Below are positions 1,690-61,654 of a stretch of DNA of 64,000 bases, piece by piece. The notes below the pieces were generated by a model. It was given only the letters and a program-made list of their open reading frames with translations. It ran no database searches and had not been told where the DNA came from. The stretch is taken from the NCBI GenBank assembly GCA_964625855.1, contig CAZVFC010000001.1, positions 201,756 through 265,755 of the forward strand, read 5' to 3'. The position numbers and the translations under genes are program-made. Within the stretch, counting starts at the first letter, position 1, and every line of letters begins with the position of its first letter. This DNA comes from an uncultured Verrucomicrobiota bacterium. Its GTDB lineage: Bacteria; Verrucomicrobiota; Verrucomicrobiia; Limisphaerales; UBA8199.

Positions 1690-3783
<2,094 letters not shown>

Positions 3784-3788
3784 CTCGA

Positions 3789-3846
3789 GTAGGGCGGGCG
3801 TCTCGCCTGCCCTTCCCGGCCGAGGCAGGCGAGACGCCTGCCCTAC
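3789..3846. repeat. Nested palindromic element (GTAGG...CCTAC family) between convergent genes; probable bidirectional terminator-like hairpin
   Basis: Arms GTAGGGCGGGCGTCTCGCCTGCCC (3789-3812) and GGCAGGCGAGACGCCTGCCCTAC (3824-3846) are near-perfect reverse complements. The element starts 5 nt after the nadE stop. The TAG stop of the minus-strand gene 3843..4619 lies inside the CCTAC end. Confidence 0.85.
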
Positions 3847-4619
3847 TTCAGCCGTTTGCCCCAGAGCCCGTGCTGTTCCTCCGAGTAACGGTCGCGCTCG
3901 GCAAAACGGCAGCCATAGCCCGCTGATCCCGGGAAGATGAAGATGACTCCCCGGTTGCGGTAACTCCAGGGATTCAGGCAGAACTTGTAATCGGCAGGAA
4001 CGCTCTGGGCGATGTAGTTCAGATCCAGCTTCCGGTCCTCATACTGGTCGAAGCACAAGCCGTTGCCCGCGTCAAAGTCGTCTATCACGATCACCGGCTT
4101 CTCGCACTCCTTGAATATGATAGCCATCTCGTCCTGCAGCGGCCAATACGCACCCCAGTGGGCGTCGAGGAAGAACAGCGACTGCGCACGGATCTCGGGC
4201 AGGTGCGCGCGCAGGAAATCCGGCGAGTTCTTCGTCTCGTAGATCAGGTTATCGGCGAAATACAGTTCGGGCCGGCGTTTCCAGTCAATCACGTCGCAGG
4301 TGAAGACCTTGTCGAACAGCAGGCTCATGGCCACTGAGGTCTCTCCGTCGTAGGTGCCGGTCTCGACGAAGTTGCGCAGGCCAAAGTCGGCTTTGAGCTT
4401 CTTGACGACCCGCACGAAGTTGGGGTCAATAATCGTGCGGCAGCCGCAGTTGTCGTGCATGTAGCGGTCGAAGGCTTTGGTGTCCTGCCCAAACCTCTGC
4501 CGCAGCTCATTTACTTCAGCAGCCGTCAAACGGCGGGCCTCGCGCTTCTTGATCTTGTAATTGATCAGCCAGTTGAGCAGGGCTCCCCCCACCGCAGTCT
4601 TTTTAAATGCTTCCAGCAT
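3843..4619 (-). CDS. Hypothetical protein, possibly a Rossmann-fold SAM-dependent methyltransferase
   Basis: 258-aa ORF with plausible composition. [12 protein letters not shown] resembles methyltransferase motif I, and LDAHW...PL resembles FkbM/CmcI-like proteins. The function is recalled from motifs only. Confidence 0.55.
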
Positions 4620-4656: not shown

Positions 4657-5901
4657 TCAACCCAGCTTCTTGTTCGGATCGCGCTTCCCTTTGGAGGTGA
4701 GGCCGACCAGCAGCCCTTTGGCTTCGTTGGCCACCATGCCCAGGAAGCGGAAGAAGCGCCGCAGGGCGCTCAGGCGCGGCCAGGCCAGGATCGTGTCTTT
4801 GGCCACCCGCTCCGCTTCCGCGTTCCGGCCCAGCGCCCGGAGGCATTGGACCATCATTTCCTGCGCCTGCCGCGCCCGGATGTCGGCGAGTTGCGTGGCC
4901 TCCAGGTATTTGAGCGCCTCGGCGTAATCCTTCTTGTCGAAGAACTGCTGCGCGATGCCAAGCAGCCGGCTGACCGCATGCGCTTCCTGTTTGAAGTAGA
5001 GCGGGCTGAAGCGATCCCGTTCCTCGGGGGACATGGCCGTGTGGCGTTCTTCCTGGAACGTGGAATACACGTCGGAGAAACTCTCCTCTTCCTTCTTAAA
5101 GCCGGCGGCCACCGCTTCCATCTTTGCCAGCGCTGCGGCGCGGGCCGTTTCATCCTTGGGGTACATGGCGTGAATCAGTTTCGTGGCAGTCTCTTTTCTC
5201 TCGATCAAGGTCAGTTGGAAAAACCGCGTCCAGAACGGCAGGCAGCGCATGCGCTGGGTGCGGCCTTTGCCGCGGATGGGCGAAAGCAGCATCGGGATGT
5301 TGATGTAGCGGTCCACCATGCGGCCGATCTGGTCCACCCACTTGTCGTCATACCAATAATGGAAATACCCCGCATAGACGCGCCCCATTGTGTTCAGCCA
5401 GCCCCAGCCGATGATCGGAAACGTCGCAATGGCGGGCGCGACCGGATCATACGGGCAGGCCAGCAGAATGCCATCCGGGTATTTGGCTACCTCAGCCCGG
5501 AGAACGTCATCCCATCCCTGCGTCTCGAACCGCACATCGTCGTTGGCGATCATATAGACTTCGGCCGTGCGCCCCAGCGCCGTCCACAAGACCTGGTAGG
5601 TCTGGCCCCAGTCGGGTGTCCGCGGCCCGATATGCCAATGCACCGGGAATCCCAGGTCCGGGAACTTGCCCCCGTCAATCGCCGCGCGCGTCACCTGGTC
5701 GTCGTCATCCACATACAACCACAGGGCTACCTTGTCTTTGCGGCGGGTCGTAGCCCGCAAAGACTCGAACACCTCCAGCAGCATGTCCGGCCGGCCGCGG
5801 GTGGAGAGCAGGATAGCAATCTCCCCGCGCTTGATCTCAGGTTGGGCAGGGGCGGCAGGCCCGGCATTATTCATGGGCGCACAAGTTAGGGAATTGTCCA
5901 T
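4657..5901 (-). CDS. Glycosyltransferase-like protein with a helical (TPR-like) C-terminal part
   Basis: 414-aa ORF. The N-terminal IAILLSTRGRPDMLLEVFESLRATT...YVDDDD resembles the GT-A/GT2 nucleotide-sugar binding region. The antisense ORF 4561..5889 is Arg/Gly-rich and was rejected. Confidence 0.55.
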   Translation of the reverse strand: MDNSLTCAPMNNAGPAAPAQPEIKRGEIAILLSTRGRPDMLLEVFESLRATTRRKDKVALWLYVDDDDQVTRAAIDGGKFPDLGFPVHWHIGPRTPDWGQTYQVLWTALGRTAEVYMIANDDVRFETQGWDDVLRAEVAKYPDGILLACPYDPVAPAIATFPIIGWGWLNTMGRVYAGYFHYWYDDKWVDQIGRMVDRYINIPMLLSPIRGKGRTQRMRCLPFWTRFFQLTLIERKETATKLIHAMYPKDETARAAALAKMEAVAAGFKKEEESFSDVYSTFQEERHTAMSPEERDRFSPLYFKQEAHAVSRLLGIAQQFFDKKDYAEALKYLEATQLADIRARQAQEMMVQCLRALGRNAEAERVAKDTILAWPRLSALRRFFRFLGMVANEAKGLLVGLTSKGKRDPNKKLG

Positions 5902-23427: not shown

Positions 23428-23900
23428 CGGTCAATCCGTCAATCCCATGGCAGACCTTGGTCCTGGAGCCATAGAACCGGTGCCGGGACGGCGCTGGTGA
23501 GCCGGTGATTGTTTGCGATTAAGGTCAGTTTGGCGGTGCACAACTTAGCGCCAGACTTTAGTTCAACGGAGGTTGAGCGCAAGTTCATTTACCCCCCTGC
23601 GCGGGCTGGGCGCACAGTCTGGCTGCTCAAGCGGCGGCCCAGGACCCGATGGCCTCGGCAGTCAACCGGGCTAACGGCAAGCGTGCGCGGGACATCTGCT
23701 CAACCGGGCCGCCGCTTTAGCAGCCAGCGCTAGGTCCTGTACTTATAGCGGATCGCGTCGCCGGGTGTCTGTCAGGCTCAGCACTACACTTGTTGTAGGG
23801 GTTAACCCTACACGCCCTATGGGGGTGTGCGGCCAGACGCACACTTTGCGGCGTTGGGCGCGTGGGCCAGACTGCACGGCGAATGCATGATACCCTGGAA

Positions 23901-23969
23901 GGAGCGCGGACATTCTTGTCCGCCTGCCGAATGGTGCGCAAGACGGGCGGACAGGAATGTCCGCGCTCC
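23901..23969. repeat. Palindromic element with GGAGCGCGGACA...TGTCCGCGCTCC arms
   Basis: Arms at 23901-23924 and 23946-23969 are reverse complements with one mismatch. Each arm contains its own small hairpin (GCGGACA-N3/4-TGTCCGC). It lies in the 635-bp non-coding gap upstream of the 24.0-35.4 kb cluster. Confidence 0.85.
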
Positions 23970-24062
23970 TTCTCGCCTACACCCTGGCCAGACTGCGCCC
24001 GCAATGATTAACGGTTTGCATTCAGTTGACTATTCCTTAAATTGATAGGGCGAACGGGCTCA

Positions 24063-42955: not shown

Positions 42956-43004
42956 GGACGGGAAAGGGCCTGCGACGGCGCCTGCGCCCTGGAATCTGGA
43001 CATT

Positions 43005-43104
43005 CTGCATATCCCCTTGGCTCTAGCATCCACTGGATTCGCTAAGGTTTCCGGGCACCGCGTCTCCGAGATTCCGCAGGGGCTAGAGCAAAGGGGATAT
43101 GCAG
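43005..43104. repeat. 100-bp element bounded by 23-bp inverted repeats
   Basis: CTGCATATCCCCTTGGCTCTAGC (43005-43027) and GCTAGAGCAAAGGGGATATGCAG (43082-43104) are reverse complements with one mismatch, separated by a 54-bp spacer. Confidence 0.8.
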
Positions 43105-43142
43105 ATTTGGGCATTTTCCGCGGGGCCGAATCCTGAAATGAT

Positions 43143-43319
43143 GAGATCACTGAGCCCAAGCCTGCGAGTCGCAATCCCAAAGGAATTGAATCACCGAACC
43201 CAGGCTTGTGAGTGGCAATCCCAATGGGATTGAATCACCGAGCCCAGGGTTGCGAGTGGCAATCCCAAAGGGATTGAATCACTGAGCCCAGGCTTGTGAG
43301 TGGCAATCCCAAAGGGATT
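43143..43319. repeat. Array of four contiguous ~44-bp REP-like repeats
   Basis: Units at 43143-43187 (degenerate), 43188-43231, 43232-43275 and 43276-43319. The consensus is GAATCACYGARCCCAGGSTTGYGAGTGGCAATCCCAAWGGGATT. Each holds the hairpin CAATCCC-AAA-GGGATTG. There are no spacers. Confidence 0.9.
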
Positions 43320-43422
43320 GAATCACTCAGCCCAGGGTTGCGCGCGGCGCGCTACCCTGGGTGCGCGATGGATTAGGGCGTCAACCCTGAAAGGGTTGCA
43401 TCGTTTGTCCCTTTCACCGCAG

Positions 43423-43878
43423 TCAATCCCACACATACCGTTCGTCGTATGCAAGTTCATACCGCTTGAGCAATAGCCGGAACTCATCCTGAAATGAAAC
43501 CTTGCGGTGATGCTGCTCCTGCTCGGCGATGTAGCGCCGCACATCCTCAATTTGCGAGGCGCCAATCGAGAACATTCCGTAGCCGTTCTGCCAGCCAAAG
43601 TCCCGCATCCCGGCAACCCGCTCCTTGACCCAAAGCGACGAGCCGCGCTTCACCTCCTTGACCATTTCCGCCGCCGCGCAGGTGCGTGACAGGCTGGCGA
43701 GCAGGTGGACATGATCTTCCACGCCGCCGACGATGATGGGCTGGCAATCCAGGTGCTTGAGAATGCCTCCGAGATAGTGGTGGCATTCTTGCCGCAGCGC
43801 GGCGTCGCGCAGCAAGGGACGGCGGTCTTTGGTGGAGAAGACGGTATGCACGAGAATCCTGGCCAATGATTGCGGCAT
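43423..43878 (-). CDS. tnpA: IS200/IS605-family Y1 (HUH) transposase, REP-associated (RAYT-like), copy 1
   Basis: MPQSLARILVHTVFSTKDRRP...VEDHVHLLASL (HUH)...RRYIAEQEQHHRK (catalytic Tyr region)...DERYVWD. The start is taken at the ATG giving MPQSL, the usual family N-terminus. Confidence 0.9.
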   Translation of the reverse strand: MPQSLARILVHTVFSTKDRRPLLRDAALRQECHHYLGGILKHLDCQPIIVGGVEDHVHLLASLSRTCAAAEMVKEVKRGSSLWVKERVAGMRDFGWQNGYGMFSIGASQIEDVRRYIAEQEQHHRKVSFQDEFRLLLKRYELAYDERYVWD

Positions 43879-44042
43879 GCCGACGAGAATGGATTGGGCG
43901 GCGCGGGGATGCAACCCTTTCAGGGTTGGAGGTATATTGGGGCGCACACACCCAGGGTTGCGCGCGGCGCGCTACCCTGGGTGCGCGATGGATTAGGGCG
44001 TCAACCCTGAAAGGGTTGCATCGTTTGTCCCTTTCACCGCAG

Positions 44043-44498
44043 TCAATCCCACACATACCGTTCGTCGTATGCAAGTTCATACCGCTTGAGCAATAGCCGG
44101 AACTCATCCTGAAATGAAACCTTGCGGTGATGCTGCTCCTGCTCGGCGATGTAGCGCCGCACATCCTCAATTTGCGAGGCGCCAATCGAGAACATTCCGT
44201 AGCCGTTCTGCCAGCCAAAGTCCCGCATCCCGGCAACCCGCTCCTTGACCCAAAGCGACGAGCCGCGCTTCACCTCCTTGACCATTTCCGCCGCCGCGCA
44301 GGTGCGTGACAGGCTGGCGAGCAGGTGGACATGATCTTCCACGCCGCCGACGATGATGGGCTGGCAATCCAGGTGCTTGAGAATGCCTCCGAGATAGTGG
44401 TGGCATTCTTGCCGCAGCGCGGCGTCGCGCAGCAAGGGACGGCGGTCTTTGGTGGAGAAGACGGTATGCACGAGAATCCTGGCCAATGATTGCGGCAT
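44043..44498 (-). CDS. tnpA: IS200/IS605-family Y1 transposase (RAYT-like), copy 2
   Basis: Translation identical to copy 1, offset by +620 bp. Confidence 0.9.
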   Translation of the reverse strand: MPQSLARILVHTVFSTKDRRPLLRDAALRQECHHYLGGILKHLDCQPIIVGGVEDHVHLLASLSRTCAAAEMVKEVKRGSSLWVKERVAGMRDFGWQNGYGMFSIGASQIEDVRRYIAEQEQHHRKVSFQDEFRLLLKRYELAYDERYVWD

Positions 44499-44662
44499 GC
44501 CGACGAGAATGGATTGGGCGGCGCGGGGATGCAACCCTTTCAGGGTTGGAGGTATATTGGGGCGCACACACCCAGGGTTGCGCGCGGCGCGCTACCCTGG
44601 GTGCGCGATGGATTAGGGCGTCAACCCTGAAAGGGTTGCATCGTTTGTCCCTTTCACCGCAG

Positions 44663-45118
44663 TCAATCCCACACATACCGTTCGTCGTATGCAAGTTCAT
44701 ACCGCTTGAGCAATAGCCGGAACTCATCCTGAAATGAAACCTTGCGGTGATGCTGCTCCTGCTCGGCGATGTAGCGCCGCACATCCTCAATTTGCGAGGC
44801 GCCAATCGAGAACATTCCGTAGCCGTTCTGCCAGCCAAAGTCCCGCATCCCGGCAACCCGCTCCTTGACCCAAAGCGACGAGCCGCGCTTCACCTCCTTG
44901 ACCATTTCCGCCGCCGCGCAGGTGCGTGACAGGCTGGCGAGCAGGTGGACATGATCTTCCACGCCGCCGACGATGATGGGCTGGCAATCCAGGTGCTTGA
45001 GAATGCCTCCGAGATAGTGGTGGCATTCTTGCCGCAGCGCGGCGTCGCGCAGCAAGGGACGGCGGTCTTTGGTGGAGAAGACGGTATGCACGAGAATCCT
45101 GGCCAATGATTGCGGCAT
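44663..45118 (-). CDS. tnpA: IS200/IS605-family Y1 transposase (RAYT-like), copy 3
   Basis: Translation identical to copy 1, offset by +1240 bp. The longer track ORF (to 45343) is an artefact of the different upstream flank. Confidence 0.9.
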   Translation of the reverse strand: MPQSLARILVHTVFSTKDRRPLLRDAALRQECHHYLGGILKHLDCQPIIVGGVEDHVHLLASLSRTCAAAEMVKEVKRGSSLWVKERVAGMRDFGWQNGYGMFSIGASQIEDVRRYIAEQEQHHRKVSFQDEFRLLLKRYELAYDERYVWD

Positions 45119-46315: not shown

Positions 46316-46594
46316 GGTTGGGGTCAAGCTGCTGGCACTGAGTGAATTTGGTGGGGGCGTTGACACCACCACCGCTCTCGGCAGTCGGGACATGCGCGGA
46401 GCGCGGCTGGCCTCAGCCGCAGCACGTGCGATAGCGAGTGGGTTTCGAGACACGGGGGGAAGCCCGCATCGTCGGGGGTGCTGCGGCTGAGGACAGCCGC
46501 GCTCCGGTGGCGGTGTCGGGATGCGCCCATTTGGTGGCGTCCCGGCTGTAGAAACCGATGCATCGGTTCGGTGCGGGGTGATCCGGCTTCCCGG

Positions 46595-58768: not shown

Positions 58769-61654
58769 CTAGCCGCGCGCGCTTTCCTGAACCGCCCTCA
58801 CGCACCTCCCGCAGATGGTCGGATGCTCGGCGACTGATCCGATATCGGTCTCCCAATGCCAGCAGCGTTCACACTTTTCGCCGGCGGCTTTGCTGACGGA
58901 AATTGTGAGGGCCGCCTCACCCGCCGGCCGGAACTCGAGCTGGGAAACGTTGAGCAGCTCGCGCAGCGATTCCTGATGCGCCTGAGCGGCTGCCACCGCC
59001 GGACTTGAGCCGACAAAGGTCAGTTTCGCCTCGAGGGCCTTGCCGATCGCTTTGGCCTGCCGGGCCTTCTCCAGTTCCGGCAAAGCCAGCTCGCGCAGCT
59101 CGAATAGCGCCTTCCAATCCGCCCGCTCAACCTCGGGCCGGACAAAGTCCAGGTGTTGCCAGGTCAGTTGATGCACGGAAGCAACCGTCTTGCCCGGCAC
59201 ATACTCCCACGCCTCATCCGCCGTAAACGCCAGCACCGGCGCGAGCATCCTGCAAAGGCCGGCGACCATCCGGTGCAACACGGTCTGCGTCGAGCGGCGC
59301 CGGGGAGAGTTCGCCGCATCGGTGTAGAGGCGGTCCTTGACCACGTCGTGATAGACGGCGGAGAGTTCGACTGCCACAAACTGGCTCACCTTCTGGTACA
59401 CGACGTGAAACTCGTATCGGTCATAAGCGGCTATGACTTCCTGCTCCAATTGAGCAAACGCACCCAGGACCCAGCGGTCCAGGCCGGTTAGCTTGTCATC
59501 GGGCACGGCATGTTTGGCCGGGTCGAAGTCGTAGAGGTTGGAAAGCTGGTAGCGCAGGGCATTGCGGAGACCGCGATATGTCTCGGCCACGGTCTTGATT
59601 CGCTCCTCGCTGACGATGATGTCATTGCGGAAGTCCTGAGATGCCACCCAAAGGCGGACAACGTCGGCGCCCCACTTCTTGACGTACGCCTCCGCAGTCT
59701 GTGGCTTCTCGTAAGCGCCCTGTGTCTGCTTGCTCTTGGAAATCTTCTCGCGGTCGGCATCCACCATGAAACCGTGGGTCAGCACGGTCTTGAAGGGCGC
59801 GGCGCCGTTGCCCGCCAGCGAGAGGAGCAGCGAGGACTGGAACCACCCGCGATGCTGGTCGCTGCCCTCCAGGTACATGTCGCACTGGAAGCGTTTGTTG
59901 CTGCCGCGGATTTCCGCGCGCCGCGCAATCACCGCGCGCGAGGAAGAGCCGGAATCAATCCACACGTCCAGCGTGTCGTTCGACTTGGCGGCGGGCGTCG
60001 GCCCTTTCCAATCCGCCGGCCTGAGAGCGGCCCAGAGCTCGGCGGCAGACCTCTCGAACCAGCTATTCGATCCGTGCTGCTCAAAGAGGGCTGCGGCGTT
60101 CCGGACGATCTGGGCGTCGAGTATGGCATTGCCCTCCGCGTCGTAGAACGCCGGGATCGGCACGCCCCAGGTGCGCTGGCGTGAGATGCACCAGTCGGGC
60201 CGGCCCTTGACCGCGGCCTCGATCCGGCTCTTGCCCCAGTCAGGCACCCAGTTCACGCGGTTGATCTCTTCCAGCGCTCGCTCGCGGAATGAACGTAGGA
60301 CAGGCGTCTCGCCTGTCCCTGTCTGGTCTGTTGCAGCCGAGGACAGGCGAGACGCCTGTCCTACCTCATGGTCAACCTCGATGAACCACTGATCCATGGC
60401 GCGGAAGATGATCGGCGTCTTGCTGCGCCAGCAGTGCGGATAGCTATGGTGATAGTTTTCCTGGTGCAGTAGCGCCTTGCGCACACGCAACTCGTGCAGC
60501 ACCGCCTCGTTCGCCTCGCTCTTGCCGTGCTTCTCCAGGATGGCCTTGCCAATCATCTCGGCGGGCATCTGTTGTTCCTGCGGCAGATCGCTCGTGTAGG
60601 CGAACTTCCCGTCATCGTCCACCGGCGAGTAGATGGGCAGGCCGTGCTCCGTGCCGAGGTGGTAGTCATCCAAGCCGTGCCCCGGGGCAATATGAACGAA
60701 GCCCGTGCCGGTGGCATTGTCCACAAAGCTGTCCCCGGCAAAGAACTTTCCCCTGCGGTTGCAGAACGGATGCTGGTATTCGAACTGGCTCAGGTGCCCG
60801 CCGTCGAGGCTGCGGACAATCTGATAGCCCTGCCAGCCGCACTTCTCGGCCACCGTCGGCAGCAGGAGGGCGGACACGATGTATTGCTCCTGACCCACCA
60901 GCACCAGCGAGTAGCTAAAGGTGGAGTTGTAGGCCACCGCGAGGTTTGCCGGCAGAGTCCAGGGCGTCGTGGTCCAGATCACCACCGACGTGCCCGGGTG
61001 CCCGACCAGCGGGAACTTCACATACGCGCTCTGGCTCACGTGATCCTTGTATTCCACTTCCGCCTCCGCCAGCGCGGTTCGGCAGGGTATGCTCCAATAC
61101 ACCGGTTTCTTGCCGCGATACACGAAGCCCCGCTCCACGATGTCCGCGAAGAGTCGCAGTTCCTCGGCCTCGTATTCCCGGGCCAGCGTCAGGTAAGGAT
61201 TGTCCCAGTCCCCGAGCACTCCGAGCCGCTTGAACTGGACGCGCTGGATGTCAATGTACTTGCGCGCGTAGGTTTCGCACGCCTTGCGAATAGTGGCCGC
61301 GTCGGTGGCGGTGTCGCCCGCTTTGCGCATGTCCTGGCTGACCTTGAACTCGATGGGCAGCCCGTGGCAATCCCAGCCCGGCACATACGGCGCACTAAAA
61401 CCGCGCAGAGTTTTGTACTTGATGATGATATCCTTGAGAATCTTGTTCAGGGCGGTGCCGATGTGCACATCGCCGTTAGCGAAAGGCGGCCCGTCGTGCA
61501 GGACAAACCTCTCCGCGCCGGCGCGCTGAGCCTGGATAGCGGCATAAAGCCCCGCGGCTTCCCACTGTTTGAGCCGCGCCGGCTCCCGCGTCACCAGGTC
61601 TGCCTTCATCGGAAAATCGGTCTGCGGCAGGTTCAATGTGCTCTTGTAGTCCAT
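58769..61654 (-). CDS. ileS: Isoleucyl-tRNA synthetase
   Basis: 961 aa with the HIGH motif (PFANGDVHIGTAL), the KMSKS motif (KISKSK), WCISRQRTWGVPIP, and a C-terminal Zn finger (CERCWHW...CGRC). Confidence 0.97.
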   Translation of the reverse strand: MDYKSTLNLPQTDFPMKADLVTREPARLKQWEAAGLYAAIQAQRAGAERFVLHDGPPFANGDVHIGTALNKILKDIIIKYKTLRGFSAPYVPGWDCHGLPIEFKVSQDMRKAGDTATDAATIRKACETYARKYIDIQRVQFKRLGVLGDWDNPYLTLAREYEAEELRLFADIVERGFVYRGKKPVYWSIPCRTALAEAEVEYKDHVSQSAYVKFPLVGHPGTSVVIWTTTPWTLPANLAVAYNSTFSYSLVLVGQEQYIVSALLLPTVAEKCGWQGYQIVRSLDGGHLSQFEYQHPFCNRRGKFFAGDSFVDNATGTGFVHIAPGHGLDDYHLGTEHGLPIYSPVDDDGKFAYTSDLPQEQQMPAEMIGKAILEKHGKSEANEAVLHELRVRKALLHQENYHHSYPHCWRSKTPIIFRAMDQWFIEVDHEVGQASRLSSAATDQTGTGETPVLRSFRERALEEINRVNWVPDWGKSRIEAAVKGRPDWCISRQRTWGVPIPAFYDAEGNAILDAQIVRNAAALFEQHGSNSWFERSAAELWAALRPADWKGPTPAAKSNDTLDVWIDSGSSSRAVIARRAEIRGSNKRFQCDMYLEGSDQHRGWFQSSLLLSLAGNGAAPFKTVLTHGFMVDADREKISKSKQTQGAYEKPQTAEAYVKKWGADVVRLWVASQDFRNDIIVSEERIKTVAETYRGLRNALRYQLSNLYDFDPAKHAVPDDKLTGLDRWVLGAFAQLEQEVIAAYDRYEFHVVYQKVSQFVAVELSAVYHDVVKDRLYTDAANSPRRRSTQTVLHRMVAGLCRMLAPVLAFTADEAWEYVPGKTVASVHQLTWQHLDFVRPEVERADWKALFELRELALPELEKARQAKAIGKALEAKLTFVGSSPAVAAAQAHQESLRELLNVSQLEFRPAGEAALTISVSKAAGEKCERCWHWETDIGSVAEHPTICGRCVRAVQESARG
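60295..60364. repeat. 70-bp nested palindromic element (GTAGG...CCTAC family) inside the ileS coding sequence
   Basis: Arms at 60295-60318 (GTAGGACAGGCGTCTCGCCTGTCC) and 60341-60364 are perfect reverse complements, with a 22-nt spacer. It is translated as VGQASRLSSAATDQTGTGETPVLR within IleS. Confidence 0.9.

Follow-up and report, generated by a model that had tools for sequence, protein, structure and literature searches.

A GTAG-headed palindromic repeat doublet read in frame within a length-variable loop of isoleucyl-tRNA synthetase in an uncultured Verrucomicrobiota bacterium

A stretch of 64,000 nucleotides from an uncultured Verrucomicrobiota bacterium (Limisphaerales, UBA8199; assembly GCA_964625855.1, contig CAZVFC010000001.1, positions 201,756 to 265,755), referred to here as the window and numbered from its first letter, carries the gene ileS on its minus strand at 58769-61654. 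The gene encodes a class Ia isoleucyl-tRNA synthetase (IleRS) of 961 amino acids and hosts, in frame, a 70-bp nested palindrome at 60295-60364, which is the subject of this analysis. The assignment of the open reading frame (ORF) draws on Pfam, motifs and homology: matches to tRNA-synt_1, Anticodon_1 and zf-FPG_IleRS lie above cut-off, a HIGH-like motif (VHIGT) stands at residue 64 and KISKS at residue 637, and the protein aligns to the solved IleRS 8C9E with E = 4e-238. The catalytic core, the HIGH and KMSKS motifs, the anticodon-binding domain and the C-terminal zinc finger expected of a class Ia IleRS are all present, and the protein is 80-88% identical to Verrucomicrobiota IleRS of 937 amino acids. 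The gene is assumed to be essential and single-copy in the source genome. No tRNA genes were found in the 64-kb window.

The palindrome consists of two exact reverse-complement arms of 24 nt, at 60295-60318 and 60341-60364, separated by a 22-nt spacer at 60319-60340. Both the inverted-repeat search and the translation agree here with an earlier sequence-only reading of the window, which had described perfect arms placed in frame in ileS. Read along the minus strand, the sense strand of the gene, the 5' unit at 60341-60364 is the 24-mer GTAGGACAGGCGTCTCGCCTGTCC and encodes VGQASRLS; the spacer, which differs among orthologues in both length and sequence, accounts for SAATDQT and for part of the Gly codon that follows; and the 3' unit at 60295-60318, GGACAGGCGAGACGCCTGTCCTAC, completes that Gly codon, continues through TGETPVL and supplies the first base of an Arg codon. 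Relative to the 937-residue orthologues, the net insertion amounts to 72 nt on the minus strand (60293-60364), made up of the 70-bp element and a sense-strand GT. It adds codons 431-454, translated as VGQASRLSSAATDQTGTGETPVLR, with LSSAATDQTGTGETPVLR as the tryptic peptide of the insert. The frame in use, beginning GTA GGA, is one of two that remain open: offset 1 of the element gives an immediate TAG and offsets 0 and 2 are stop-free, as the sequence-only reading had noted in saying that the frame avoids a TAG.

Each arm is itself a small hairpin. Inside the right arm lies an inverted repeat of 10 nt with a 3-nt loop, and the left arm, as the exact reverse complement, shares this internal palindrome. 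The unit can be written as GTAG followed by GACAGGCG-TCT-CGCCTGTC(C), with a 9-bp stem and a 3-nt loop, which agrees with the GTAG-tagged superfamily of repetitive extragenic palindromic (REP) sequences, whose stems span about 6-9 bp with GTAG at one end. The two units are inverted, GTAG heads outermost, across a short spacer and can fold into one long hairpin, the architecture of a REP dimer or REPIN (REP doublet forming a hairpin); an imperfect extension lengthens the inverted repeat to 31 nt at 90%. A 90-nt stretch of the sense strand is predicted to fold at -61.4 kcal/mol as RNA (z = -9.9) and at -36 kcal/mol as DNA (z = -10), in line with the earlier suggestion of a strong hairpin within the ileS mRNA.

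With at most three mismatches, the 24-mer has four matches in the window, the two ileS arms included, against 0.00 expected from 100 shuffles. An intergenic doublet of the same REP family lies at 3788-3847, with a 10-12-nt spacer and arms at 3789-3812 and 3823-3846 that each differ from the ileS 24-mer at 3 of 24 positions, so that the match of 21 in 24 previously counted at 3789-3812 is correct. The sequence-only reading had called the element REP- or MITE-like. The REP half of that label is upheld by the GTAG head, the hairpin unit, the doublet arrangement and the intergenic sister copy; the half naming a classical miniature inverted-repeat transposable element (MITE) is not, since no target-site duplication is evident and the unit as a whole is two REP hairpins nested into a palindrome, where a MITE would have unrelated DNA enclosed by terminal repeats. 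In the alleles compared, the insert has no consistent flanking direct repeat: the bases after CCTAC are GT, TT or AA across relatives, the AAA...TTT flanks of the repeat are inverted and not direct, and no exact pre-insertion allele was found.

The closest IleRS sequences come from Verrucomicrobiota metagenome-assembled genomes (MAGs) and have a baseline of 937 amino acids, 24 fewer than the window protein. The extra residues form a single block between the stretches ...QWFIE(I/V)DH and FRERALEEI, where most orthologues carry two codons only; the claim of an insertion relative to orthologues therefore holds. The site lies in a length-variable loop, again as proposed, with phmmer alignments to solved IleRS structures breaking exactly at residues 428|453 of the window protein. 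It maps between residues 416 and 419 of Staphylococcus aureus IleRS (1FFY) and to residue 415 of 8C9E, and in 8wnf, another solved IleRS, the loop at this point is naturally longer. In a set of 111 IleRS cluster representatives drawn from all sources, the loop is of basal length in about half and exceeds it by up to 61 residues in the others, the spacing from QWF to WxP having a mode of 20 residues and reaching 81. Alignment thus supports the view that this position tolerates length variation. The loop probably follows directly on the strand leading back from the CP1 editing domain.

These length differences, and the longer loop of 8wnf, would also suit an ordinary lineage-specific loop selected as protein, with the palindrome incidental to it. 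This explanation is very improbable: the DNA carries a perfect 24-nt inverted repeat that is 21/24 identical to an intergenic element, synonymous positions are conserved while the middle of the peptide is free in length and sequence, and most orthologues lack the insert. An ancient homologous loop without palindromic DNA, the case that would have refuted the sequence-only reading, is not the pattern seen.

At the DNA level, the loop was compared across 80 metagenomic ileS loci (68-86% identity) plus another eight contigs, with site counts taken over 87 loci; loci from other genomes bear L-numbers. More than two codons occupy the loop in 56 of the 87, always in frame. The frame is open across the loop in all 87, whatever the insert length, each insert being a multiple of three long. 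Nearly every related insert is read in the GTA-G.. frame, L142 alone using the other open one. Inverted repeats of at least 20 nt occur in about twenty of the loci. The inserts represent at least seven palindrome families, six of them GTAG-headed. The family of the window insert appears as three subtypes (the window type, the L156 type and the L174/L199 type); the other GTAG-headed families are GTAGCAGCGGACGTGAGTCCGCT, the GTAG(C/G)AG(C/A)CGA(C/G)GT..GAGGCTC group, GTAGCCGCGTTTGTGAAAACGCGG, GTAGCGGCGCTGTGTCAGCGCCG and GTAGCGGCGGACGGCAGTCCGCCGC, and one family, TCGGAGGGGCGAG..., has no GTAG head. At least four junction offsets are distinguishable at the 5' side, where inserts begin 0, 3, 4, 9 or 12 nt past the His codon, and these different offsets indicate separate insertion events. 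Outside ileS, two of the loop families recur in other loci. In L174 and L199 the insert is a full-length copy of a subfamily whose inner palindrome is conserved and which is likewise found in frame in other genes; the AAA...TTT flanks of this subfamily account for the Lys that precedes, and the Leu that follows, many IleRS inserts. In other lineages the loop has shorter, irregular inserts that look like remnants. In the 3-10 kb flanks of related ileS loci, the window excepted, no further copy of the locus's own ileS-insert repeat was found.

Protein sequences place the recurrence at the same loop, where 71 of 197 have at least six extra residues; any other clearly resolved site shows this in at most nine sequences. 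By eye, repeat-like peptides are also visible in some long-loop cluster representatives, seemingly from other lineages. A second indel-prone site follows window IleS residue ~582-588 (window ~59889-59909), with 4-32 extra residues in 44 of 120 close relatives; its inserts are of the type (I/T)THHAS..PSTLNPQPSTL, and the window IleS has none there. By back-translation, PSTLNPQ would be encoded by a heptanucleotide repeat, (CCCTCAA)n. A third, minor site follows window IleS residue ~111-117 in 9 of 197 sequences, and some of its inserts have repeat-like peptides such as QRAVGVPPA...ETGTSGKIPEVPLE.

The same comparison bears on whether the insert is real at all and whether it reaches the protein. 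A metagenome-type assembly and a strong hairpin could invite the view that the insert is a chimera, or that it is removed before the mature protein by intein-like excision or ribosomal bypassing. Such an artefact or removal is extremely unlikely. The same insert stands at the same codon in independent ENA and JGI assemblies from different projects (L200, L203, L204, L205, L129, L156 and others), which also settles the concern over chimeric assembly raised with the sequence-only reading; insert lengths in multiples of three and stop-free frames at all 87 loci likewise speak against it; and the stop codon that bypassing would require is absent. An intein was considered separately and rejected: the 24 residues run from VGQ to VLR and are followed by Ser, with Val at the start and Arg at the end, as against the at least 130 residues, the Cys, Ser or Thr start and the end in His-Asn plus Cys, Ser or Thr of inteins, and no Pfam family beyond the IleRS domains was matched at E <= 0.001.

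Four relatives with the same insert (L200, L203, L204 and L205; 86-87% amino acid identity) allow the arms to be compared with the gene around them. The gene as a whole differs from these relatives by 17-20%, and strong purifying selection on it is evident from 87% amino acid identity against 40-46% divergence at four-fold degenerate sites. The 48 arm nucleotides, by contrast, differ at 0 (L200), 2 (L203), 3 (L204) and 1 (L205) positions, a total of 6/192, for which the binomial P is 2e-10 against the gene-wide divergence of 18%. Third codon positions within the arms differ at 4/64, against 42% at four-fold sites (P = 1e-10). Spacers vary from 1 to 22 nt among the compared inserts and from 1 to 52 nt among family-A inserts in related ileS genes; those of L200, L205 and L201 look mutually homologous but diverged. 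In the sister lineage L201, both arms of this same insert have decayed, at 7/24 and 9/24 positions as counted manually from the alignment; IleRS therefore does not need the palindrome.

Beyond ileS, the family was traced by scanning one genome per species with the pattern GTAGGRCRGGCGTCTCGCCYGYCY. At least 119 stretches in other genomes (L001-L119) match, in MAGs labelled Verrucomicrobiota and several other phyla, and among the fetched scan loci the commonest multi-copy arrangement of the family is a +/- doublet. Inside long stop-free frames there are 23 family copies in the fetched loci, mostly in Verrucomicrobiota-labelled MAGs. Examples of in-frame copies are L026:7404-7464, L051:988-1048, L035:4223-4324, L101:3140-3225 and 5057-5157, and L024:5007-5128. 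Their hosts in related MAGs are large proteins, among them a 1206-residue ORF with two copies, and from flanking peptides read by eye we take some to resemble ClpB and XseA. MAGs with the exact 24-mer pattern include some that are labelled as Cyanobacteria (Oscillatoria, Hormoscilla, Cylindrospermum), as Atribacterota or Syntrophales, and as Nitrospirota, Acidobacteriota, Armatimonadota, Chloroflexota and others. This phylum spread is unusually wide for one REP sequence, and some labels, such as 'Bifidobacterium', may be binning errors.

Taken together, the insert is very probably a non-autonomous GTAG-tagged REP doublet that entered ileS, was tolerated in a variable loop and is read through in frame. 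The element would have entered the gene in an ancestor of the source lineage, presumably mobilised in trans by a REP-associated tyrosine transposase (RAYT) of the HUH type acting on single-stranded DNA, by analogy with other REP systems. Its survival may be owed to landing in a loop of widely varying length between the QWF(I/V)x(I/V)DH and FRERALEEI stretches, and the element length together with the two flanking bases gives a multiple of three that would have kept the frame. A permissive loop, a length divisible by three and a stop-free frame in combination explain a read-through that adds 24 residues to IleRS. The loop is a recurrent landing site, with different REP families settled there in different Verrucomicrobiota lineages, old copies decaying into ordinary loop sequence or being lost. 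Where the family seems active, the arms hold to the consensus of the family even as divergence accumulates in the spacer and at silent sites of ileS. This upkeep is attributed to a REP-specific process and not to a need of IleRS. Candidate processes are RAYT-linked maintenance, replacement at a resident REP, and copying from other family members through re-templating or gene conversion.

Several observations weigh against this account, in whole or in part. One is that the conservation of the arms could come from selection on the mRNA or DNA hairpin. The palindrome would then be a domesticated REP kept for a host function in ileS, such as slowing the ribosome after the N-terminal half and the editing domain, or stabilising or processing the transcript. 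The near-invariant arms beside a drifting spacer and strongly diverged four-fold sites, the very stable fold, and the recurrence of palindromes from several families at the same codon across lineages are all in keeping with this idea. It nevertheless seems unlikely, given that most close orthologues have no insert, that L201 retains the insert with a decayed palindrome, and that the conserved sequence is the family consensus, found equally between genes and in other genes. An Rfam search of the hairpin matched no family, returning only microRNA-precursor hits far below gathering scores, and a terminator and promoter scan found nothing, so that no terminator-like site speaks for such a function either.

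The history of this copy raises a second difficulty. In a neighbour-joining tree, filled and empty alleles are interspersed; at the junction, close empty alleles have DH-A-K/R/Q-FR and filled ones DH-K/E/R/V[insert]S-FR; and the closest filled and empty pair (L207/L206, 90% nucleotide identity) differs at the downstream flanking codon and offers no clean pre-insertion site. Sliding-window identity between filled and empty alleles gave no clear local recombination signal around the insert. The pristine copies may accordingly stem from recent, separate insertions, each directed to a specific target at the loop codon, and not from one old, maintained insertion. This reading is possible but less likely. 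Apart from the scattered tree, it draws on subfamilies with different loops and spacers at the same junction (the window, L156 and L174/L199 types), on the insertion of other families 0-12 nt away, and on the AAA...TTT flanks of copies elsewhere, which could reflect a target preference. The homologous but diverged spacers of L200, L205 and L201 fit vertical descent instead, the Ser codon after the insert is common to all close filled alleles and found in no close empty allele, and the empty sites show no conserved target beyond coding constraint. Two histories would thus suit the data: one old insertion with maintained arms accompanied by losses or allele exchange, or repeated insertion at a preferred target.

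The remaining difficulties concern the mobilising enzyme, the copy number and the protein structure. No RAYT gene was detected in the 64-kb window, whether by HUH/Y motif search or with a verrucomicrobial Y1_Tnp protein as tblastn query, and by motif search and tblastn neither the window nor about 200 fetched loci contained a Y1 HUH transposase flanked by the ileS-insert repeat. The only RAYT-like gene seen, L089:5581-6423 (PF01797 Y1_Tnp), belongs to a Verrucomicrobia MAG and has another repeat at its flanks. Further copies of the ileS-insert family within the window amount to one doublet only, the intergenic one, so that few copies are seen. An AlphaFold2 model built from a 48-sequence alignment of close relatives (>=80% identity) reached a mean pLDDT of 53 and a pTM of 0.34, too poor to show loop exposure. 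Because this model is unusable, the probable exposure of the loop at the surface rests on the alignment to solved IleRS structures. As to the repeat beside the L089 gene, it is a palindrome, GGGAGCGCCGGCATCC(G/C)TGCCGGCG, present on both sides, and the Y1_Tnp coding sequence itself seems to hold this palindrome in frame (peptide ...GAPASLPAS...AGRDAGAP...).

In-frame REPs are not without precedent. Di Nocera et al. 2013 (BMC Genomics 14:522, PMC3733652) described GTAG and CGTC REP monomers and dimers that add 20-30 amino acids in frame and are most abundant in the verrucomicrobium Opitutus terrae, where such intragenic insertions were interpreted as neutral and located in linkers or loops. The O. 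terrae dimers share with the ileS insert the GTAG-headed hairpin units, their inverted arrangement, the 20-30 residues in frame, mostly read as V-G/A-..., and the phylum. Their GTAG-17/18/19 peptides (VAGVADPG, VGPALAAG and GTGVPPV) differ from the ileS-insert peptide, and because of this the families appear to be different; ileS is absent from the O. terrae gene list (PMC3733652). The same work found REPs in genes of one functional class usually at different sites, whereas here one loop was hit repeatedly by many families. Its Additional file 3 also lists a CGTC-1 dimer at residues 467-488 of the Erythrobacter litoralis IleRS, ELI_13550. This too is an in-frame REP dimer, of 22 residues, in the middle of an IleRS of ~940 residues; it belongs to the CGTC superfamily and to another phylum, and its residue numbers are ~36 off those of the window insert.

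The Rickettsia palindromic elements (RPEs; Ogata et al. 2000, summarised in PMC3733652), the classic precedent, lie in frame in coding genes, including housekeeping genes that seemingly still function, and RPE-1 insertions are longer according to the same summary. They resemble the ileS insert, by description and function only, in being a palindromic repeat placed in frame in a gene that stays intact. To our knowledge, RPEs are restricted to Rickettsia, and a link of RPE-1 to GTAG heads or RAYTs has never been proposed.

The REPIN-RAYT systems (Bertels and Rainey 2011, PMC3116915; bioRxiv 10.1101/2021.07.10.451892) likewise combine two inverted REPs into one hairpin-capable unit. Their master sequence, long persistence and decay when inactive match the decayed copy of L201, decay after RAYT loss having been described (bioRxiv 10.1101/2021.07.10.451892), and the L201 copy and the pristine arms together fit a copy kept at the master sequence for as long as a RAYT is active and decaying once it is not. 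Published REPINs are extragenic by description, whereas the ileS insert is intragenic, with no cognate RAYT found in the window. We know of no published REPIN description in which arms are conserved at an orthologous coding position over ~40% silent divergence, and it is this pattern of maintenance and decay at one such position that is unusual.

The single case is not new in kind, because in-frame GTAG REP dimers have already been published (PMC3733652); by itself it is one more REP-decorated housekeeping protein and would not surprise a specialist. The reuse of one loop by many families and the conservation of arms at an orthologous coding site are, as far as could be found in the compared papers, new. 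The comparative result is the more useful one, revealing a loop of an essential enzyme that different palindrome families colonise repeatedly, with copies ranging from pristine to decayed to remnant. The locus thereby lets one study by what means mobile palindromes select coding sites or persist in them, and could reveal how repeat arms stay intact over the long term and how insertions feed the growth of protein loops. For annotators and structure modellers, it is also a warning that repeats are the source of odd low-complexity loops in Verrucomicrobiota proteins, VGQASRL...GETPVL being an example. A bolder proposal, doubtful at present, is that the loop serves as a phylum-wide and possibly cross-phylum landing pad for REPs and REPINs, whose arms are actively kept at the master sequence as silent sites in the remainder of the gene saturate, and whose unmaintained copies decay into ordinary residues. 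RAYT-dependent replacement, gene conversion from other copies, or selection by the host on the mRNA hairpin could then do the keeping. If that were true, REPIN insertion would be a regular route of loop growth and turnover in an essential enzyme, and the locus would offer a natural, datable series for REPIN maintenance versus decay.

Other repeats accompany the ileS insert in the window. The sister doublet at 3788-3847 sits between convergent ORFs, a long one ending at 3783, which we take from its translation read by eye to resemble NAD+ synthetase, and one at 3843-4619 on the minus strand. Another intergenic GTAG-headed doublet, at 1577-1642, belongs to a different REP family, GTAGGGACGCCTCGCCGAGGCGTC; with the doublets of the ileS family, it means that the genome hosts several REP families. 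Long inverted repeats also occur at 23898-23972, overlapping no ORF of at least 120 amino acids, at 43004-43105, and at 46397-46506, overlapping two long putative minus-strand ORFs. The region 43129-44870 holds further repeats, which could be a real tandem duplication or an effect of assembly. It includes a 44-nt tandem array, AATCCCAAAGGGATTGAATCACCGAGCCCAGGCTTGTGAGTGGC, seen as four overlapping 88-nt copies at 44-nt spacing that are ~80% alike, followed by three copies of a 620-bp unit with at least 300 nt per copy 100% identical. Two of these three units hold a perfect 21-nt inverted repeat with 73-nt spacing.

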